A stretch of 18,083 nt of DNA, taken from IMG/VR virus record IMGVR_UViG_2651869755_000020; one strand, 5' to 3'. The translations under genes and the position numbers were made by a program. Position 1 is the stretch's first letter, and each line of letters begins with the position of its first letter. Source of the DNA: a virus. Its lineage: Duplodnaviria; Heunggongvirae; Uroviricota; Caudoviricetes. The notes below the pieces were generated by a model. That model worked only from the letters and a program-made list of their open reading frames with translations. It had not been told where the DNA came from and made no database searches. This document shows positions 3,575 to 17,710 of the stretch, one piece after another.

Positions 3575-3825
3575 TGAAAGAATACCGCTATTCCGGCCCG
3601 GCCAGCGGCGTCACGCTGTCGGACGGAACCGAAATCCTGCTCTGGCCGGGGAAGACGGTTTCCCTGCCGGAGGAGCATGACTACGTGAAGGTACTGGTGG
3701 CGCTGAAGCATCTGACGCCGGTACCAGAAGATACTAAACCCGCCGTCACACCGGCTGTGCAGTCACCAAAGCGCAGAAGCAGCAGTGACAGCGAAGTGAA
3801 AACGGAGGACGCCCATGGCAGCTAA
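3574..3825 (+). CDS. small phage protein of unknown function (Mu gp38-position)
   Basis: ATG at 3574 with AGGAAA/GAGG upstream, overlapping the upstream stop. The track starts it at GTG 3571. C-terminal tail is Ser/Lys/Glu-rich. Overlaps the sheath gene start by 11 nt. Confidence 0.5.
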   Translation: MKEYRYSGPASGVTLSDGTEILLWPGKTVSLPEEHDYVKVLVALKHLTPVPEDTKPAVTPAVQSPKRRSSSDSEVKTEDAHGS

Positions 3826-5242
3826 CTATCTGCATGGTCCCGAAACCATTGAGGTGGAAAACGGAGCCCGCCCGGTTAAAACGGTGAAATCTGCCGTTAT
3901 TGGCCTGATTGGTACCGCCCCGATGGGGGATGTCAATACGCTGGTACAGTGCCTGTCTGAGAAAGACGCAGCGGCATTTGGCAGCCAGTTCACCGGCTTT
4001 ACCATTCCGCAGGCGCTGGATGCGATTTATGACCATGGTGCAGGCACCGTTCTGGTCATTAACGTCCTCGACCCGGCGAAACATAAAACGGCGATCGAGG
4101 ATGAGGTGGTTACCTTTGACAAATCGACAGGGCAGGCCAGACTGGCGCATCCGGTTGTCGCTAATGTGGTGGTGAAAAACAGTGAAGGCAGCACCACCCA
4201 CACGGCGAACACGGACTACCGTGTTGATGCGCAGGCGGGTGTGCTCACGAACCTGGGCAAGGCTATTGAGGCCGGTGGCAGCGTGAAGGTGAGCTATGAG
4301 TACGCGGACCCGTCGAAGGTGACTGCGGCGGACATCATCGGCGGGGTGAACAGCGCCGGAAACCGAACCGGCATGAAGCTGCTTAACGACAGCTTCAACC
4401 TGTACGGCTATTTCGCCAAAATTCTGATTGCGCCGGTGTTCTGCACCCAGAAGAGTGTCGCAGTTGAGCTTATCGCCATGGCAGAGAAGCTGGGCGCGGT
4501 AACCTACATTGATGCGCCTGTCGGTACCACCTTTGCACAGGCTCTGGCAGGTCGTGGCCCGGAAGGCACCATCAACTTCAATACCAGCTCCGACCGCGTC
4601 CGTCTGTGCTATCCGCATGTGAAGGTATATGACCCGGTGACAAACACAGAGCGTCTGGAGCCGCTCAGCCAGCGTGCAGCAGGTCTGCGTGCCAGAGTCG
4701 ATCTGGACAAGGGCTACTGGTGGTCATCCTCCAATCAGGAGATTCTGGGGATCACCGGCGTGGAGCGCCAGCTGTCCGCGATGATTGATGACCCGCAGAG
4801 TGAGGTGAACCTGCTTAACGAACAGGGGATCACCACGGTATTCAGCAGTTACGGCAGCGGCCTTCGTCTGTGGGGTAACCGGACGGCAGCATGGCCAACG
4901 GTCACCCATATGCGTAACTTTGAGAACGTTCGCCGCACCGGTGATGTGATCAACGAGTCCATTCGTTATTTCAGCCAGCAGTACATCGACATGCCGATTA
5001 CTCAGGCGCTGATTGATGCACTGACGGAGTCGGTCAACGCCTACGGTCGCAAAATGACTGGTGATGGTGCGGTACTGGGCTTCCGTTGCTGGTTTGATCC
5101 GGCCCGCAATCCGGAGACGGAGCTGGCCGCCGGGCACCTGTTGCTGAGCTACAAATATACGCCACCACCGCCGCTGGAGCGACTGACGTTTGAGACTGAG
5201 ATCACCTCGGAATACCTGTTAACCCTGAAAGGGGGCAACTGA
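3815..5242 (+). CDS. contractile tail sheath protein
   Basis: 475-aa ORF with GGAGG RBS at 3803-3807. Size and position (immediately before a roughly 170-aa tube gene) are diagnostic of myovirus sheath proteins. Confidence 0.85.
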   Translation: MAANYLHGPETIEVENGARPVKTVKSAVIGLIGTAPMGDVNTLVQCLSEKDAAAFGSQFTGFTIPQALDAIYDHGAGTVLVINVLDPAKHKTAIEDEVVTFDKSTGQARLAHPVVANVVVKNSEGSTTHTANTDYRVDAQAGVLTNLGKAIEAGGSVKVSYEYADPSKVTAADIIGGVNSAGNRTGMKLLNDSFNLYGYFAKILIAPVFCTQKSVAVELIAMAEKLGAVTYIDAPVGTTFAQALAGRGPEGTINFNTSSDRVRLCYPHVKVYDPVTNTERLEPLSQRAAGLRARVDLDKGYWWSSSNQEILGITGVERQLSAMIDDPQSEVNLLNEQGITTVFSSYGSGLRLWGNRTAAWPTVTHMRNFENVRRTGDVINESIRYFSQQYIDMPITQALIDALTESVNAYGRKMTGDGAVLGFRCWFDPARNPETELAAGHLLLSYKYTPPPPLERLTFETEITSEYLLTLKGGN

Positions 5243-5763
5243 TGTCAAAGATTGAGATAAACCGCATCACGAATGCCAACATCTATCTGGATGGTACTAA
5301 CCTGCTGGGACGGGCTGAGGAAGTCAAACTCCCCGATGTCTCCATGATTATGCAGGAACACAAGGCGCTGGGGATGGTGGGTAAGGTGGAACTCCCGGCT
5401 GGTTTTGACAAGCTGGAAGGCGAAATCAAATGGAACAGCTTTTACCGCGATGCGATGCTGTCTGCCGCGAACCCGTACAGGTCGCTGGCACTGCAGTGTC
5501 GTTCCAGCGTCCAGCGCTACAGCTCGCAGGGGCTGATTGACGAAATCCCGCTGGTCACCTTCCTGACGATTATGTTCAAGAAGAACCCGCTGGGGACGTT
5601 CAAACAGCACGAGAACGCCGAGTTCTCCAGTAGCTTCACCTGCACGTATATCAGACAGGTACTGGATGGTGAAGAGCTGCTGCAACTGGACTATCTGGCC
5701 AACATCTTCCGGGTCGGCGGTGTTGATCAACTGACTGACTACCGTATCAATATCGGGGGCTGA
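5242..5763 (+). CDS. tail tube protein
   Basis: 173-aa ORF whose start overlaps the sheath stop. Classic sheath-tube gene pair. Confidence 0.8.
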   Translation: MSKIEINRITNANIYLDGTNLLGRAEEVKLPDVSMIMQEHKALGMVGKVELPAGFDKLEGEIKWNSFYRDAMLSAANPYRSLALQCRSSVQRYSSQGLIDEIPLVTFLTIMFKKNPLGTFKQHENAEFSSSFTCTYIRQVLDGEELLQLDYLANIFRVGGVDQLTDYRINIGG

Positions 5764-5765
5764 CG

Positions 5766-6047
5766 GTGAGTGTTGAACTGACGGATAAAGGAGGACGATG
5801 TGCGGCACTGGGCATGTCAAATGGTACGTGGTTTACCCTCCTTGATATTCCGGGGGTGGAAACCCTTTTTAATACCCGTAAAACCAATGACCCGATTGAC
5901 TGCACACGTTCAAAGGCCCGCAAACTGGCGGATTTGATTGAAGCATGGGAGCCTCCCGACCACTGGTTCTCCGGCATCGGCAAATCTGAGGGAAAGACGC
6001 TTCTCATCGCTTTCCTGCGTAACTGCAAGGGGTTTCGCACTTGCTGA
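5766..6047 (+). CDS. small hypothetical protein (about 77-93 aa, four Cys); possible accessory (moron-like) gene between tube and chaperone
   Basis: ORF in operon orientation starting at GTG 5766 or in-frame ATG 5814 (AAGGAGGA at 5787-5794). Followed by a hairpin terminator candidate. No family recognised. A 97-aa ORF on the opposite strand covers the same DNA, so the coding strand is not certain. Confidence 0.35.
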   Translation: MSVELTDKGGRCAALGMSNGTWFTLLDIPGVETLFNTRKTNDPIDCTRSKARKLADLIEAWEPPDHWFSGIGKSEGKTLLIAFLRNCKGFRTC

Positions 6048-6053
6048 CATCAC

Positions 6054-6080
6054 AGGGGCTCCGGCCCCTTCTTCTTAATC
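6054..6080 (+). terminator. candidate intrinsic terminator (GC-rich hairpin AGGGGC-TCCG-GCCCCT followed by TTCTTCTT)
   Basis: Perfect 5-6 bp G/C stem at 6054-6069 followed by a T-rich run interrupted by C, directly after the small ORF stop at 6047. Confidence 0.4.
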
Positions 6081-6144
6081 TCCTTTAATATCCGTCACGC
6101 GCTTCTCCCGACATACTGCCCTGAACTTACACAGGAGCACAATC

Positions 6145-6480
6145 ATGTCACAGACCCCATCCGATACTTTTAAATTGTCTTATCCCTTCACCACTGCTGC
6201 AGGCACCAGAATTGAGCTGGTTGAACTGAAACGCCTGACGGTAAAAGACCTGAAGCAGGTGCGCAAAATCAGCAAAAACCCGGCAGACTGGGACGAACCG
6301 CTGATTGCCCGCAGTACTGGTCTTCTCCCGGAAGATCTCGACAATATGGATCTGGCTGATTACCTGCAGTTACAGAAACGATTTCAGCTCATCACGGGGA
6401 TGGGTGAGAGCAACCAGGGCGCTGACGCAGGCGCAGGGGCTGCTGGCGAGATGGTTCCGGTTTCAGCCGGGGGAGATTGA
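6145..6480 (+). CDS. tail assembly chaperone (position equivalent to lambda G / P2 E / Mu gp41)
   Basis: 111-aa ORF with AGGAG RBS 8 nt upstream, located between the tube and tape measure genes. Acidic protein, as expected for tape-measure chaperones. Confidence 0.6.
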   Translation: MSQTPSDTFKLSYPFTTAAGTRIELVELKRLTVKDLKQVRKISKNPADWDEPLIARSTGLLPEDLDNMDLADYLQLQKRFQLITGMGESNQGADAGAGAAGEMVPVSAGGD

Positions 6481-6562
6481 TGCCCTCGATACTGACGATC
6501 TGGAGATGTGGCTGGAGCAGGCTGAAGAGCAAATCAAAAGCGAGTACGGCGACAAATCATAG
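6305..6562 (+). CDS. overlapping second frame; candidate frameshift extension of the tail assembly chaperone
   Basis: Open frame overlapping 6305-6480 in the +1 frame relative to the chaperone and continuing 27 codons beyond its stop (...RFQPGEIDALDTDDLEMWLEQAEEQIKSEYGDKS). Protein-like acidic tail. Position matches the conserved chaperone frameshift of tailed phages. Confidence 0.35.
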   Translation: MPAVLVFSRKISTIWIWLITCSYRNDFSSSRGWVRATRALTQAQGLLARWFRFQPGEIDALDTDDLEMWLEQAEEQIKSEYGDKS

Positions 6563-6637
6563 TACAGACAGCCGCCAGTAGCGGCTGTTCTGCGTTATCC
6601 CCTCACGTCTTTTCACCTTCCCCGGAGGTTAACCACT

Positions 6638-9600
6638 ATGTCGGGACAGTTTTCAGTCGGCGTTGTTATCGGCGGGATGATTGGCAGCACATTCCGTTCT
6701 GCAATGAGCGGTACCCGCCGTGCGCTTGATTCCCTGAGCGATACCTCACGCCGCCTGCAGGAACGTCAGAACGCTTTAACCCGTGCAACAGAACGTTATG
6801 GTCAACTGGGTTCTTCCCGGATGCAGCATCTCAACAGCGAGCTGCTGCGGGTAAGCCGCACCATGGAGCAAATTGAGCGCCAGCAGCGCCGTCTGTCAGC
6901 GGCATCCGCTACCAGTGATGCGCTGAAAGCTAACCGCATGGCGCTGTATGGTCAGGGGATTGAAGCGTATGGCATGGCACAGACTGTTTATCATACGGTT
7001 TCCCCTGCCGTTCAGCAGTCCATGTCTTTTCAGGACAAAATGATTGATATGTCGATCACCGCAAAATATGACAATAAAACGCGGGATGCACTTGCCGGAC
7101 AGATAAAAGGCTGGGCGCTTAAATACAATCAGTATCAGGATGAGCTGCAGGAGGCGGTGGGTTCACTCATCAGCGACAATATTGATAATGTGTCAGATAT
7201 CGGTTTTCTGATGCCGGATATTGCCCGCGCGGCAACGGCAACACGCACGTCTGCTCAGGACTGGGCAAAAGTGGCCGCAGTCTGGCAAAACTCCCTGAAA
7301 GGTGCGGCCAGAGATTTTGGTGCCGTTCAGAATATTATGGCTTATGCCGGTGACCAGGGGTCATTTGAAATCCCGGATCAGGTCAAGTGGATGCAGTCCC
7401 TGGCCCCAATGATGGCGGGTCTTGCCAGTGGAAAAGAGGCTGTTGCTGAAATCGGGGCCAGTCTCCAGATAGCAAAAATCGGTGCAGGTTCCACCGACGA
7501 AGCAGCCAATAATTTTAAAAACTTTCTTACCAAAATTTTTGCCCGCGATACTCAGAAACAGTTTGCTGATCTGGGTATTGATTTGCAGGGATCTATTGCG
7601 AGTTATAAAGCTGCGGGGATCTCTCCGATTGAAGGGATGTTGAGTGTTATAGAACGTTACCTCAATGCCAAAAGCCCCGAAGCGCTGGCCGGCTTCAAAT
7701 CAGCCATGAAAATAAAGAATGATACGGCAAGAGATGAGGCACTTCAGGCTCTGGCGAAAAACTTTGGTCTGGGCGATATGTTCGCGGATATGCAGGTCAT
7801 GGCATTTATCCGCCCGATGCTGGCCAACATGGACAGATATCGAGAGATCCGTGCCGGTGCTCTCAGGGCTGCGGATAACGATTTGCTTGCCAGTGCTTAT
7901 GATCAGCGGCTGAAATCTCCCCTTGAAGCCACTAAAACACTTATGGTCAGCAGTCGCGATCTGGCAATTACGCTGGGCGATCAATTAGCTCCATCTTTTA
8001 TTTCTCTGACTCAGGAACTGCTCCCACTCATTCAGGGGACAAAACACTGGGTAGCGACTCACCCGCAATTTGTCAGTGGGGCTTTTAAGCTCATCAGTGC
8101 GCTCCTTGCGATTAAGATAGCGACTATTGGTCTCAAACTGGGGCTGAATCTCCTTATTTCCCCCTTTGTGAACGTCTGGAAAACTACTGTTTTACTCCGG
8201 ACCAACTGGCATCGACTGACTACCGCACTCGGAGAAGGTGGCAAATTACGCTGGCTTGTCACTGGATTCAGCCGACTGACCAGCGGAGGACTGAAACTCA
8301 GCAAAGTTCTGGCGGGCAGCCTCGTTCGCGGTTTTATGAGCGCTGCACGTGCCGTTCTCTGGATTGGGCGAGCGCTGATGATGAATCCCATCGGTCTCGT
8401 TATCACCGCTGTCGCGACAGCAGCTTACCTTATCTACCGCAACTGGGGGGCTGTCAGTGGTTGGTTTAAACAGCGCTGGGCTGACATTCAGGAAGCCTTT
8501 AACGGCGGCATTGTGGGAATTGGTAAGTTGCTGATTAACTGGTCGCCGGCAGGCCTGCTCTATAAAGCCTTTGCGGCTGCGCTGAAATATTTCGGCGTTG
8601 CTCTGCCGGCAAAGTTCACCGACTTCGGTGGCCATCTTATCGACGGTCTGATTAACGGTATCAAAAGCAAATGGGGGTCGCTCAAATCCAGTGTAACCGG
8701 AATGGGTGACAGCATCAGTAGCTGGTTTAAACAGCGCTGGGCTGACATTCAGGAAGCCTTTAACGGCGGCATTGTGGGAATTGGTAAGTTGCTGATTAAC
8801 TGGTCGCCGGCAGGCCTGCTCTATAAAGCCTTTGCGGCTGCGCTGAAATATTTCGGCGTTGCTCTGCCGGCAAAGTTCACCGACTTCGGTGGCCATCTTA
8901 TCGACGGTCTGATTAACGGTATCAAAAACAAATGGGGGTCGCTCAAATCCAGTGTAACCGGAATGGGTGACAGCATCAGTAGCTGGTTTAAACAGTGCTG
9001 GGCTGACATTCAGGAAGCCTTTAACGGCGGTATCGCGGGAACTGGTAAGCTGCTGATTAACTGGTCGCCGGCAGGTCTGCTCTATAAAGCCTTTGCAGCT
9101 GCGCTGAAATATCTTGGTGTTGATCTGCCGGCAAAGTTCACCGACTTCGGTGGCCATCTTGTCGACGGTCTGATTAACGGTATCAAAAACAAATGGGAGT
9201 CGCTCAAATCCAGTGTAACCGGAATGGGTGACAGCATCAGTGGCTGGTTCAGCGAAAAGCTGGGCATTCATTCGCCGAGCCGCGTGTTTATGGGCTTTGG
9301 TGACAATATCGCGCAGGGGGCCGCCATTGGCCTGCAGCGGACCACTCCGCTTGCAGCTCTGGCCGGGCAGCGAATGGCCAGTGAACTGCTCCCCAGAATG
9401 CCCGTGAGCATTCAGGGGCCAGAAATACGGGATAACACTTCAGGTGTTCGCTTCAGTATGCCGTTGCCCGATATCAATGGGTTTATGTCGTCTGCTAAAA
9501 ATGCGATCGGAGCCGTAATCAATAGTTTGTCTTCCATGCCCGTTATTCCGCTCTCCACCCGGGCATCGATTTTACCAGGGCAACGTCTGGCAAATGAGAT

Positions 9601-9850
9601 GACACCGGATGTTCCCCGTATCCCCTCGCCTGAAATCCTGGCTGCCGGATATTCAGGCCGTGGTGCAGCTGCAACCGGCGGTGGAACGTCTGGTGGTATC
9701 CAGGTCAGCTTTAATCCTCAGTTTTTCCTCAATGGCAGGGAAACCACAGCGCCTGCAGGACTGACTGGTGCCCTGAATATGAGTCTGCATGAGCTGGAAA
9801 AAATGCTGGAGCGTCTGCTGGCTCAGAAACAACGTAAGGAGTACCGCTGA
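6638..9850 (+). CDS. tail tape measure protein
   Basis: 1070-aa ORF with GGAGG RBS, the largest gene, directly downstream of the chaperone pair. Has a long helical N-terminal half and internal tandem repeats. Start of the downstream gene overlaps its stop. Confidence 0.9.
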   Translation: MSGQFSVGVVIGGMIGSTFRSAMSGTRRALDSLSDTSRRLQERQNALTRATERYGQLGSSRMQHLNSELLRVSRTMEQIERQQRRLSAASATSDALKANRMALYGQGIEAYGMAQTVYHTVSPAVQQSMSFQDKMIDMSITAKYDNKTRDALAGQIKGWALKYNQYQDELQEAVGSLISDNIDNVSDIGFLMPDIARAATATRTSAQDWAKVAAVWQNSLKGAARDFGAVQNIMAYAGDQGSFEIPDQVKWMQSLAPMMAGLASGKEAVAEIGASLQIAKIGAGSTDEAANNFKNFLTKIFARDTQKQFADLGIDLQGSIASYKAAGISPIEGMLSVIERYLNAKSPEALAGFKSAMKIKNDTARDEALQALAKNFGLGDMFADMQVMAFIRPMLANMDRYREIRAGALRAADNDLLASAYDQRLKSPLEATKTLMVSSRDLAITLGDQLAPSFISLTQELLPLIQGTKHWVATHPQFVSGAFKLISALLAIKIATIGLKLGLNLLISPFVNVWKTTVLLRTNWHRLTTALGEGGKLRWLVTGFSRLTSGGLKLSKVLAGSLVRGFMSAARAVLWIGRALMMNPIGLVITAVATAAYLIYRNWGAVSGWFKQRWADIQEAFNGGIVGIGKLLINWSPAGLLYKAFAAALKYFGVALPAKFTDFGGHLIDGLINGIKSKWGSLKSSVTGMGDSISSWFKQRWADIQEAFNGGIVGIGKLLINWSPAGLLYKAFAAALKYFGVALPAKFTDFGGHLIDGLINGIKNKWGSLKSSVTGMGDSISSWFKQCWADIQEAFNGGIAGTGKLLINWSPAGLLYKAFAAALKYLGVDLPAKFTDFGGHLVDGLINGIKNKWESLKSSVTGMGDSISGWFSEKLGIHSPSRVFMGFGDNIAQGAAIGLQRTTPLAALAGQRMASELLPRMPVSIQGPEIRDNTSGVRFSMPLPDINGFMSSAKNAIGAVINSLSSMPVIPLSTRASILPGQRLANEMTPDVPRIPSPEILAAGYSGRGAAATGGGTSGGIQVSFNPQFFLNGRETTAPAGLTGALNMSLHELEKMLERLLAQKQRKEYR
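8462..9244 (+). repeat. three tandem 261-bp (87-codon) in-frame repeats inside the tape measure gene
   Basis: Unit begins TGGTTTAAACAGCGCTGGGCTGACATTCAGGAAGCC at 8462, 8723 and 8984. Copies 1 and 2 differ at a single base (AAAAGC vs AAAAAC). Copy 3 carries about a dozen substitutions. Confidence 0.9.
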
Positions 9851-16415: not shown

Positions 16416-16457
16416 GGCACACCAACAGGCAATGCAGAGCCTTCCCCCAAACCAACG
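16416..16457 (-). repeat. right inverted repeat of the invertible cassette (core AA at 16454-16455), about 65 bp upstream of the invertase start
   Basis: GGCACACCAACAGGCAATGCAGAGCCTTCCCCCAAACCAACG is the reverse complement of the left repeat with 2 mismatches. Placement next to the invertase gene mirrors gixR/gin and hixR/hin. Confidence 0.7.
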
Positions 16458-16521
16458 TTTATCTCTCAAATCCTCCCCACATTATCTCAGTACTTTAACC
16501 ACTCAAAAGGGAGTATTTTTA

Positions 16522-17094
16522 ATGCTGATTGGCTACATACGTGTGTCAACAAATGACCAAAACACAGATTTGCAACGCAATGCATTAATGTGCGCAGGAT
16601 GTGAACAGATTTTTGAGGACAAAATGAGCGGAACCAAGTCGGAACGACCAGGCCTGAAACGCGCTTTAAAGTGCCTTAAAAGAGGGGATACATTGGTGGT
16701 CTGGAAGCTGGATCGGTTGGGTAGAAGAATGAAACACCTCATTGCTCTCACAGAAGAGCTACGCGCAAAAGGTGTCAATTTTCGCAGTCTGACGGATTCA
16801 ATCGATACCAGCACTCCGATGGGAAGGTTCTTTTTTCATATGATGGGTGCACTGGCAGAAATGGAGCGTGAACTGATAGTTGAGCGCACGCTGGCAGGAC
16901 TGGCTGCTGCGCGAGCACAAGGAAGAGTTGGAGGACGTCGCCCGAAACTGACGAAGGAGCAGCATGAGCAGATCGCAAGATTGCTCCAGAAAGGGTATGA
17001 CAGAAAGCGGCTGGCAATTATCTATGATATTGGACTGTCAACGATCTACCGCTACCACCCTGTTGGGACTGTCATAACGCAACCTGAAATGTAA
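16522..17094 (+). CDS. site-specific DNA invertase, serine recombinase of the Gin/Pin/Cin/Hin family
   Basis: 190-aa ORF from ATG 16522 (AAAGGGAG RBS). Begins MLIGYIRVSTNDQNTDLQRNAL..., with GDTLVVWKLDRLGR and the C-terminal HTH, near-identical in pattern to Gin/Pin as recalled. The track start at 16432 adds 30 non-conserved residues and overlaps the inverted repeat, so it is rejected. Confidence 0.9.
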   Translation: MLIGYIRVSTNDQNTDLQRNALMCAGCEQIFEDKMSGTKSERPGLKRALKCLKRGDTLVVWKLDRLGRRMKHLIALTEELRAKGVNFRSLTDSIDTSTPMGRFFFHMMGALAEMERELIVERTLAGLAAARAQGRVGGRRPKLTKEQHEQIARLLQKGYDRKRLAIIYDIGLSTIYRYHPVGTVITQPEM

Positions 17095-17172: not shown

Positions 17173-17710
17173 CGTCGGCGGGCATCAGCCTGTTCCGGTA
17201 GATGTACGGGTCATTAGCGCCACTCACTGCAATCTGGAAGAAGATATGCAGCAAGGACGTTTTCGCCGTGATCTGTTTTATCGGCTGAGTATTTTGCGTC
17301 TGCAATTGCCACCACTGCGCGAGCGGGTGGCGGATATTCTTCCGCTGGCGGAAAGCTTTTTGAAAGTGTCTCTGGCGGCGCTCTCCGCCCCATTTTCTGC
17401 TGCATTACGCCAGGGGTTACAGGCAAGTGAAACTGTGCTGCTGCACTACGACTGGCCAAGCAATATTCGTGAACTGCGCAATATGATGGAACGACTGGCG
17501 CTGTTTTTAAGTGTGGAACCGACGCCGGATTTAACGCCGCAGTTTATGCAACTGCTACTGCCGGAACTGGCGCGCGAGTCGGCGAAAACTCCCGCTCCAC
17601 GCTTACTGACACCACAACAGGCACTGGAGAAATTTAATGGCGATAAAACAGCAGCGGCGAATTATTTAGGCATCAGCCGGACGACGTTCTGGCGGCGGCT
17701 GAAAAGCTGA
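17173..17710 (+). pseudogene. prpR: 3' fragment (about 180 codons) of the sigma-54-dependent propionate regulator gene, cut by the prophage insertion
   Basis: The frame translates from about 17173 as ...VGGHQPVPVDVRVISATHCNLEEDMQQGRFRRDLFYRL..., the conserved end of a sigma-54 activator AAA+ domain, then a C-terminal Fis-type HTH (NYLGISRTTFWRRLKS). The same frame upstream of about 17170 is not activator-like. Convergent yahO follows after 97 bp, as in the E. coli yahO-prpR arrangement I recall. Confidence 0.7.

Follow-up and report, generated by a model that had tools for sequence, protein, structure and literature searches.

The classical morons of phages HK97 and HK022, which Juhala et al. 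reportedly defined in 2000 as carrying a promoter and a terminator of their own, are extra late-operon genes between genes that are adjacent in relatives. Bondy-Denomy in 2013 and Rousset in 2022 are said to have described the anti-CRISPR/aca loci of Mu-like Pseudomonas phages and the defence hotspots of P2-like phages, respectively, where interchangeable small accessory genes occupy a fixed junction in a structural or late module. Lysogens of Pseudomonas phage JBD26 produce Tab, an 83-amino-acid (aa) protein of no known family encoded by a late-operon gene of the phage, with which they block superinfecting phages (PMC10884400). In the BcepMu-group prophages of Burkholderia, variable regions were assigned to the genome ends and not to the junction between the tail tube and tail assembly chaperone genes (PMC2920897). 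In this study, we analysed a stretch of 18,083 nucleotides (nt) from IMG/VR record IMGVR_UViG_2651869755_000020, in the following called the window, which comes from an E. coli prophage, a transposable myovirus of the BcepMu type, and represents its late region. The subject is an open reading frame (ORF) of 93 codons, ORF93, located at 5766..6047 on the plus strand and followed by a GC-rich hairpin, both of which lie exactly at this tube-chaperone junction.

The junction resembles the anti-CRISPR/aca loci and the P2-like hotspots in that interchangeable small accessory genes are found at a fixed position in a structural module. It differs from them in that another junction and another phage group are concerned, most of the cargo is uncharacterised, and an aca-like regulator is missing. 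Our best explanation is that the junction is a cargo site with ORF93 as an optional passenger, that the hairpin belongs to the phage backbone, and that the protein acts against a host or rival-phage protein. To this explanation as a whole, architecture and function combined, we assign a probability of roughly 0.6. Its architectural part, i.e., ORF93 in a cargo hotspot next to a backbone hairpin, we hold to be highly probable.

A recurrent cargo site between the tube and chaperone genes

At positions 5200-6700, the window is 99.8% identical to Escherichia phage PhiKM (PQ738613; genus Bcepmuvirus), in which the counterpart of ORF93 is annotated as 'hypothetical protein'. The prophage segment bearing ORF93 was found in 629 of 5426 complete E. 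coli genomes (approximately 12%). ORF93 follows the tail tube gene (5242..5763, plus strand; Pfam Phage_tube, E=2.9e-53), whose stop codon TGA occupies 5761-5763. The downstream border of the insertion site is given by the tail assembly chaperone gene (6145..6480, plus strand; Pfam Phage_TAC_7, E=5.5e-21), which starts with ATG at 6145.

All 80 of 80 IMG/VR loci fetched via ORF93 carry it between tube and chaperone. Because this sample is circular, it was replaced by 80 loci picked by tube homology alone from one-genome-per-species contigs, and the tube-chaperone gap was measured in the 78 loci having both genes. The junction is empty, with a gap of up to 162 nt, in 36 of the 78. Empty junctions occur in relatives of BcepMu from Burkholderia, in Chromobacterium and Pandoraea, and also in Erwinia tracheiphila, Xenorhabdus, Brenneria, and Pectobacterium with tubes 91-94% identical to that of the window. 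Members of the ORF93 family occupy the junction in 21 loci (14 intact, 7 truncated or frameshifted), and a further 21 contain other cargo. In five ORF93 loci, a Phage_gp49_66 gene is stacked 5' of ORF93 with an overlap of 11 nt (e.g., L094 3519-3818), and one (L101) shows an IS-like insertion with what looks like a transposase ORF.

The other cargo is diverse. A Fer2-like protein of 109 aa was found in six loci (L129 3537-3866, L130, L131, L134, L136, and L139), a 66-aa ORF of no family in four (e.g., L107 3523-3723), and unassigned DNA in eight. Single loci contain a CdiA-CT RNase A toxin with a CdiI_2 immunity protein (L156 3596-4843), DUF4145 and HEPN proteins (L165 3685-5215), and minus-strand cargo including a PAAR-motif protein (L151 773-2904). 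The Fer2-like protein, which comes from Pectobacterium, matches the Fer2 2Fe-2S ferredoxin domain with 22 bits against a cut-off of 21 (L129). It presumably has no cluster-binding cysteines, as it reads RAGMSGSSAARL where we take the plant-type ferredoxin motif to have CRAGSCSSCAGK, and it may represent a ferredoxin fold put to another use.

Cargo of every kind sits between the tube stop and the GC-rich hairpin, an interval of a few dozen bases. When filled and empty sites are aligned, they differ by a clean indel from the tube stop to the hairpin, with homologous flanks. The junction of BcepMu itself contains no cargo, only a spacer of 121 nt, and ORF93 is likewise absent from the Ralstonia and Pseudomonas phage relatives of BcepMu. 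The tube-chaperone junction of BcepMu-type tail operons is thus a recurrent cargo site, and ORF93 is an optional passenger. An earlier note on the window, made from its letters alone, had asked for a comparison with related prophages and had named a structural role with conserved presence at this position in all Mu-like phages as the finding that would overturn an accessory gene. Against such a role, ORF93 is absent from 57 of the 78 loci. In the literature, as far as our limited coverage reaches, no description of this junction as a cargo site was found.

Decay of the passenger was observed as well. Truncated, frameshifted, or nonsense alleles of ORF93 reside in otherwise intact tail modules (L113-L118 from Photorhabdus, L098, L104, L059, L063, and L064); in Photorhabdus, what remains after loss of the 5' third overlaps the end of the tube gene. 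In another IMG/VR locus (L023 3906-4279), similarity to the window tube is confined to the last 30 codons of the tube gene, with 77% identity, and ORF93 and the chaperone gene reach 85-96%; a mosaic junction appears to lie within the 3' end of the tube gene.

Coding evidence and family membership of ORF93

The GTG start of ORF93 sits 2 nt past the tube stop, and the frame ends with TGA after 93 codons. A Shine-Dalgarno (SD)-like run GGGGG (5755-5759) lies within the last codons of the tube gene, 6 nt ahead of the GTG. An in-frame ATG at 5814 is an alternative start, yielding a 77-codon version. The upstream start position is kept across 50 unique sequences (GTG in 36, ATG in 13, TTG in one), and residue 17, at which the shorter version would begin, is Leu in some homologues; hence, the 93-codon form is the real one. 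Its N-terminal M-[ST]-V-E is among the best-conserved stretches of the family. Selection acts on this frame: the ratio of nonsynonymous to synonymous substitution rates (dN/dS) of ORF93 against its relatives is 0.07-0.14, a constraint stronger than that of the chaperone (0.18-0.26) and weaker than that of the tube (0.02-0.04). ORF93 is a genuine protein-coding accessory gene, for which 33 database homologues were collected, with occurrences throughout Enterobacterales. Its AlphaFold2 model is a compact alpha/beta fold with a mean predicted local distance difference test (pLDDT) of 88 and a predicted template modelling score of 0.80.

Coordinates of ORF, hairpin, and spacer were re-derived from the sequence and agree with the first reading. 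The lower G+C content ascribed to the ORF at that time is marginal in bulk (52.1%, compared with 53.6% for the tube and 53.9% for the chaperone). It holds only at third codon positions and only relative to sheath and tube (54% versus 68-71%), the chaperone and tape measure genes being equal to ORF93 in this respect. Inside ORF93 (5788-5845), an AAGGAGG motif precedes by 3 nt an out-of-frame ATG at 5798 that opens an ORF of just 15 codons. Since the motif encodes the conserved D-K-G-G, this arrangement is probably incidental.

The profile search and structure prediction that the earlier note had suggested gave, besides the confident model, a full-length match: residues 1-93 of ORF93 align to positions 1-96 of the 96 of phrog_1239 (E=4.7e-48). 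The claim that the ORF has no recognisable family therefore falls. Pfam PF24881 (DUF7739) is matched with 24.7 bits (E=3.5e-5), just below the gathering threshold of 27 bits. Close homologues with 96-99% identity (P0001, P0002, P0014) have a precomputed PF24881 match and others at 85-94% do not, and the ORF93 profile in turn retrieves DUF7739 proteins (e.g., P0056 with E=2.7e-16). On these profile scores, ORF93 is best described as a sister or peripheral member of DUF7739 and not as a formal Pfam member. Both phrog_1239 and DUF7739 are families without assigned function.

An exhaustive search with a hidden Markov model returned 75 cluster representatives, nearly all of which are 90-100 aa long and stand alone. 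In a few, gene-calling has joined the family member to DUF2737, lambda replication protein P, or YopX, each of them from an early-region lambdoid gene. In a 33-sequence family alignment with identities down to 26%, residues M1, F83, C87, G89, and F90 are invariant and V3, N19, and D42 nearly so; all are present in ORF93. The description of the product as Cys-containing carries little as a motif: of four cysteines, only C87, within the C-terminal F-x3-C-x-G-F, is invariant across the family.

The closest known relatives, the Sf6 gene 22 protein, HK75 gp27, and that of the CUS-3 hkaH region, are likewise stand-alone proteins of 90-100 aa, and in the family alignment they share about 44% of their residues with ORF93. 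The motifs M-[TS]-V-E, NGTWF, TNDP, W-x-PP, and F-x3-C-x-G-F are common to ORF93 and Sf6 gene 22/HK75 gp27. In contrast to ORF93 in its late myovirus tail operon, Sf6 gene 22 and HK75 gp27 belong to the early PL operon of a lambdoid podovirus and siphovirus, where erf, ssb, and abc2 precede them and DUF2737 and ead/Ea22 are their neighbours. A member in Edwardsiella phage EPP-1 lies between rdgC and int. In Mu-like phages, distant members (30-45% identity) are encoded in the early semi-essential region, directly behind gam or directly ahead of gemA-mor, and one lies between the portal and F genes of a Mu-type head module. Further members occur in P1-like Punavirus and SSU5/pHCM2-like phages. 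As to plasmids, a location in the leading regions of conjugative plasmids was considered and rejected: those with family members are almost all non-mobilisable, and by size and gene content they look like P1-like and pHCM2/SSU5-like phage-plasmids.

Podo-, sipho-, and myoviruses alike have the family in their early operons; to judge from these gene contexts, it is therefore not a tail component. The accessory function suspected earlier is the right category, with homologues residing in non-tail early accessory regions of unrelated phages. Taken together, the comparisons identify ORF93 as a conserved, apparently dispensable accessory gene of an already catalogued family.

Two relatives have surroundings of their own kind. 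Gene 123 of the SSU5-like Yersinia phage fHe-Yen8-01 (L085 4001-4309) is annotated in GenBank as 'particle associated protein' and stands in a block of more such proteins, among them a DNA methyltransferase and an ADP-ribosyltransferase toxin of very large size; by analogy, the block is reminiscent of packaged anti-restriction proteins. The distant member P0059 (L177 6001-6285) lies on a 102-kb metagenomic contig approximately 2 kb from a Wadjet-type system (MksE, JetD_C, DUF3584) and near ParA, in surroundings with no recognisable phage module.

Other searches added little. NCBIfam and PADLOC scans of ORF93 gave no match, and the 33-sequence profile retrieved from PDB sequences only a spurious engineered protein (E=0.0015). 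Foldseek with the ORF93 model returned nothing below E=0.06 from the PDB and one unnamed protein from BFVD (E=4.7e-4). Several IMG/VR scans with single distant members came back empty, and no relation by sequence to Pseudomonas phage proteins was found. A literature search on DUF7739, hkaH, fHe-Yen8-01, and DUF2737 yielded nothing useful.

The backbone hairpin and the chaperone ribosome-binding site

The hairpin AGGGGC-tccg-GCCCCT (6054-6069, plus strand) has a 6-bp stem with five GC pairs and a tetraloop (-12.8 kcal/mol). With the T-rich tail TCTTCTTAAT (6070-6079), in which the six T among ten positions are interrupted, it forms an intrinsic-terminator-like element that closes off sheath, tube, and any cargo, and 63 nt separate the hairpin from the chaperone SD sequence AGGAG (6133-6137). 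A terminator-like hairpin at most 160 nt upstream of the chaperone start was detected in 64 of 82 tube-selected loci versus 25 of 708 control windows. Among 37 unique ORF93-bearing spacers, the stem is invariant and the loop varies; across lineages, the hairpin is retained at the same position with about 29 different stem sequences.

BcepMu shows the same arrangement between gp40 and gp41: the tube stop is followed after 29 nt by GGCCCGC-ttcg-GCGGGCC, then by TTTTTTAATCT, and then by the chaperone gene. Tube stop, GC-rich hairpin, T-run, TTAATCT, spacer, and chaperone SD appear in the same order in both phages. The difference is that BcepMu has a canonical T6 and no cargo, whereas the window has a weaker, interrupted T-tract and ORF93 upstream. 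Empty sites and BcepMu also have the hairpin and the spacer of approximately 75 nt that precedes the chaperone gene, and both are therefore features of the phage backbone and not part of the insertion. The idea of an internal attenuator, voiced in the earlier note, is plausible for the hairpin, which by its sequence is probably an intra-operon attenuator, but its tie to the ORF does not hold.

Within the spacer, the block TTAATCTCCTTTAATAT (6075..6091, plus strand) is kept in Enterobacterales with ORF93 and with empty sites, and its TTAATCT is common with BcepMu. A second conserved block, GACATACTGCCCTG (6110-6123), in an element at 6110..6149 on the plus strand, can pair with CAGG (6131-6134) and ATGTC (6145-6149), i.e., with the chaperone SD and start, and this pairing appears in minimum free energy structures. 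Other lineages pair the chaperone SD and start with different sequences: GTGCTC/GAGCAC in BcepMu, ATGATACT/AGTATCAT in Photorhabdus, CTGTCCTCATC/GATGAGGACAG in L141, and CCTTCGCGT/ACGCGAAGG in Dechloromonas.

Pairing at the ribosome-binding site (RBS) was compared in the window and in loci L086 and L103-L172, from about -45 to +5 of the chaperone start. The duplex energy at the chaperone RBS had a mean z of -1.29 relative to shuffles and was significant in 22 of 66 loci, compared with 0 of 59 for the tube RBS; a pair-probability test of SD occlusion was nearly flat (0.59 versus 0.55). It is possible that the conserved upstream stem occludes the RBS and limits translation of the chaperone.

A second GC-rich hairpin, CAGCCGC-cagta-GCGGCTG followed by TTCTGCGTT (6569-6589), lies between the end of an ORF overlapping the chaperone gene and the tape measure gene (6638-9850), and the region 6555-6645 folds with z = -3.3. 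The overlapping ORF (6305-6562), for which Pfam gave no match, covers the chaperone 3' end and is presumably its frameshift extension. Relative to 6145-6480, its frame is +1 (equivalently -2), unlike the E/E' extension of P2, whose usual frame is -1.

Expression, putative function, and genomic surroundings of ORF93

A consensus-promoter scan of the plus strand from 3978 to 7162 revealed no sigma-70-like promoter. Together with the start 2 nt from the tube stop and the 11-nt overlap with the stacked gene in other loci, this makes ORF93 look like a translationally coupled passenger of the late transcript rather than a self-contained moron made up of promoter, gene, and terminator. Like the classical morons of HK97 and HK022, it is an extra late-operon gene between genes adjacent in relatives; unlike them, it has no detectable promoter, and the terminator downstream is backbone. 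The earlier label of a moron-type insertion is therefore apt for the optional insertion and inapt for a promoter and terminator of its own.

From this arrangement, we infer that ORF93 would be made late from the sheath-tube mRNA, with translation coupled to that of the tube. The hairpin may act as a partial intrinsic terminator or as a stabiliser of the 3' end and would keep sheath, tube, and upstream cargo highly expressed relative to the chaperone and the tape measure protein. Such a role would suit a phage that requires sheath and tube in hundreds of copies but the chaperone and the tape measure protein in only a few. The second, RBS-occluding stem might limit chaperone translation further.

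For the protein itself, we tentatively propose a soluble 93-aa alpha/beta domain that serves counter-defence or host takeover by binding and neutralising a protein of the host or of a rival phage and is not a part of the tail. Two things prompt this proposal: the genes that accompany the family elsewhere (gam, abc2, rdgC, Lar-like, and ea genes) and the kind of cargo that otherwise fills the junction. A grand average of hydropathicity of -0.27 and the lack of a hydrophobic segment or lipobox on reading the sequence are consistent with a soluble product. A DNA mimic of the DMP12 kind was considered and is unlikely, as the isoelectric point (pI) of ORF93 is 8.4 and not acidic, and values across the family range from 4.1 to 9.7.

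More speculatively, the Sf6-gp22/DUF7739-like proteins might form an undescribed counter-defence or host-takeover family of temperate proteobacterial phages. In BcepMu-like enterobacterial prophages, the gene would have left the early region for the 3' end of the late transcript with the highest expression. There, the protein would be made in bulk with sheath and tube upstream of the attenuator, and possibly be packaged and delivered with the virion, or blunt defences triggered by late structural proteins. Packaging is suggested by the 'particle associated' annotation of the SSU5-like homologue.

Several points weigh against this account. Late expression is odd timing for counter-defence, unless the protein is packaged or aimed at late-triggered defences. 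Charge varies across the family, which speaks against a single, simple way of binding common to all members, for example DNA mimicry. The T-tract behind the hairpin is interrupted (TCTTCTT), and termination efficiency may be low. A consensus scan would furthermore miss an unconventional or activator-dependent promoter inside the tube gene.

Such a promoter would matter for the alternative that ORF93 is a defence moron expressed from the prophage and working like Tab, which by analogy appears to be its closest functional counterpart. Both are small proteins (83 and 93 aa) without recognisable domain, and in both cases the gene is an optional extra within the operon of late structural genes of a transposable Mu-like phage; elsewhere, the junction holds defence-like cargo (DUF4145 with HEPN, toxin with immunity protein), and the gene is widespread in E. 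coli prophages. However, Tab is made in the lysogen and is unrelated to ORF93 by sequence, and ORF93 shows no sigma-70-like promoter, starts directly behind the tube gene, and had no match in PADLOC. Its family elsewhere belongs to early lytic operons (PL of Sf6 and HK75, the early region of Mu-like phages), which are repressed in lysogens. We therefore regard a Tab-like role as doubtful.

That ORF93 is an orphan immunity or antitoxin-like protein neutralising, e.g., a contact-dependent inhibition (CDI) or type VI secretion effector or a phage-borne toxin seems unlikely. The CdiA-CT toxin with its CdiI_2 partner at exactly this junction in one locus would suit it, but no CdiI or Imm family was matched in the Pfam, NCBIfam, and PADLOC scans, no toxin gene adjoins the family in the contexts examined, and a protein embedded in the late operon would not protect the lysogen.

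A helper role in the tail, be it as a chaperone specific to the tube, as a tail completion factor, or as a minor virion protein that is delivered at infection, would account for the position, the translational coupling to the tube, late co-expression, and purifying selection at the junction, and the annotation of the fHe-Yen8-01 homologue points the same way. A faint PHROG match to a tail assembly chaperone family (E=0.24-0.41) is not significant. We nevertheless rate this alternative very unlikely: ORF93 is missing next to tubes 91-94% identical to that of the window, in BcepMu, and in the related phages of Ralstonia and Pseudomonas, it is truncated or interrupted by nonsense mutations in several otherwise intact modules, and homologues occur in the early operons of podovirus Sf6 and siphovirus HK75.

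On the opposite strand, a 97-codon ORF (5747..6040, minus strand) is open in 52 of 60 unique homologous segments. Its third codon positions coincide with those of ORF93, so that a codon-position variability test cannot part the forward from the shadow frame; frame-specific dN/dS was used instead. The reverse frame is open because ORF93 contains no Tyr, no Gln, and one His, and reverse-frame stops need Tyr, or His or Gln after a T-ending codon. Reverse omega (0.19-0.28) is about twice the forward value in all nine pairs with computable forward dS (11 compared). The reverse ORF has no Pfam or PHROG match and opposes the operon direction, and in the fHe-Yen8-01, 813R1, and HK75 homologues it is broken and the forward frame kept. 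The earlier note had allowed for its translation; the sequence evidence speaks against this, and we judge it to be no gene. With no RNA family found by an Rfam scan of 5600-6700 either, the view that the region encodes no functional protein except perhaps this ORF, or acts only as an RNA or attenuator element, has next to no probability.

In kind, the finding on ORF93 is an ordinary one and a modestly useful lead that does not overturn current understanding. As a strongly constrained small protein with relatives in model phages (Sf6, HK75, P1-like), it offers screens for anti-defence or host-takeover activity an inexpensive and clearly delimited candidate. The tube-chaperone junction provides one more predictable place to mine accessory functions (toxin-immunity, HEPN, PAAR), and the backbone hairpin together with the possible RBS-occluding stem makes up a testable model of a high tube-to-chaperone expression ratio.

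As to the remaining surroundings, the sheath gene (3815-5242) is the 5' neighbour of the tube gene. A serine recombinase/invertase gene (16432-17094; Resolvase and HTH_7, E=1e-50) follows the tail fibre gene, like Gin of Mu, and in the next ORF (17246-17710) a sigma-54 activator is represented by its C-terminal part alone (AAA lid and Fis helix-turn-helix). The recombinase behind the tail fibre gene and the truncated activator suggest that the prophage ends near 17.1-17.25 kb in a disrupted host regulator gene.

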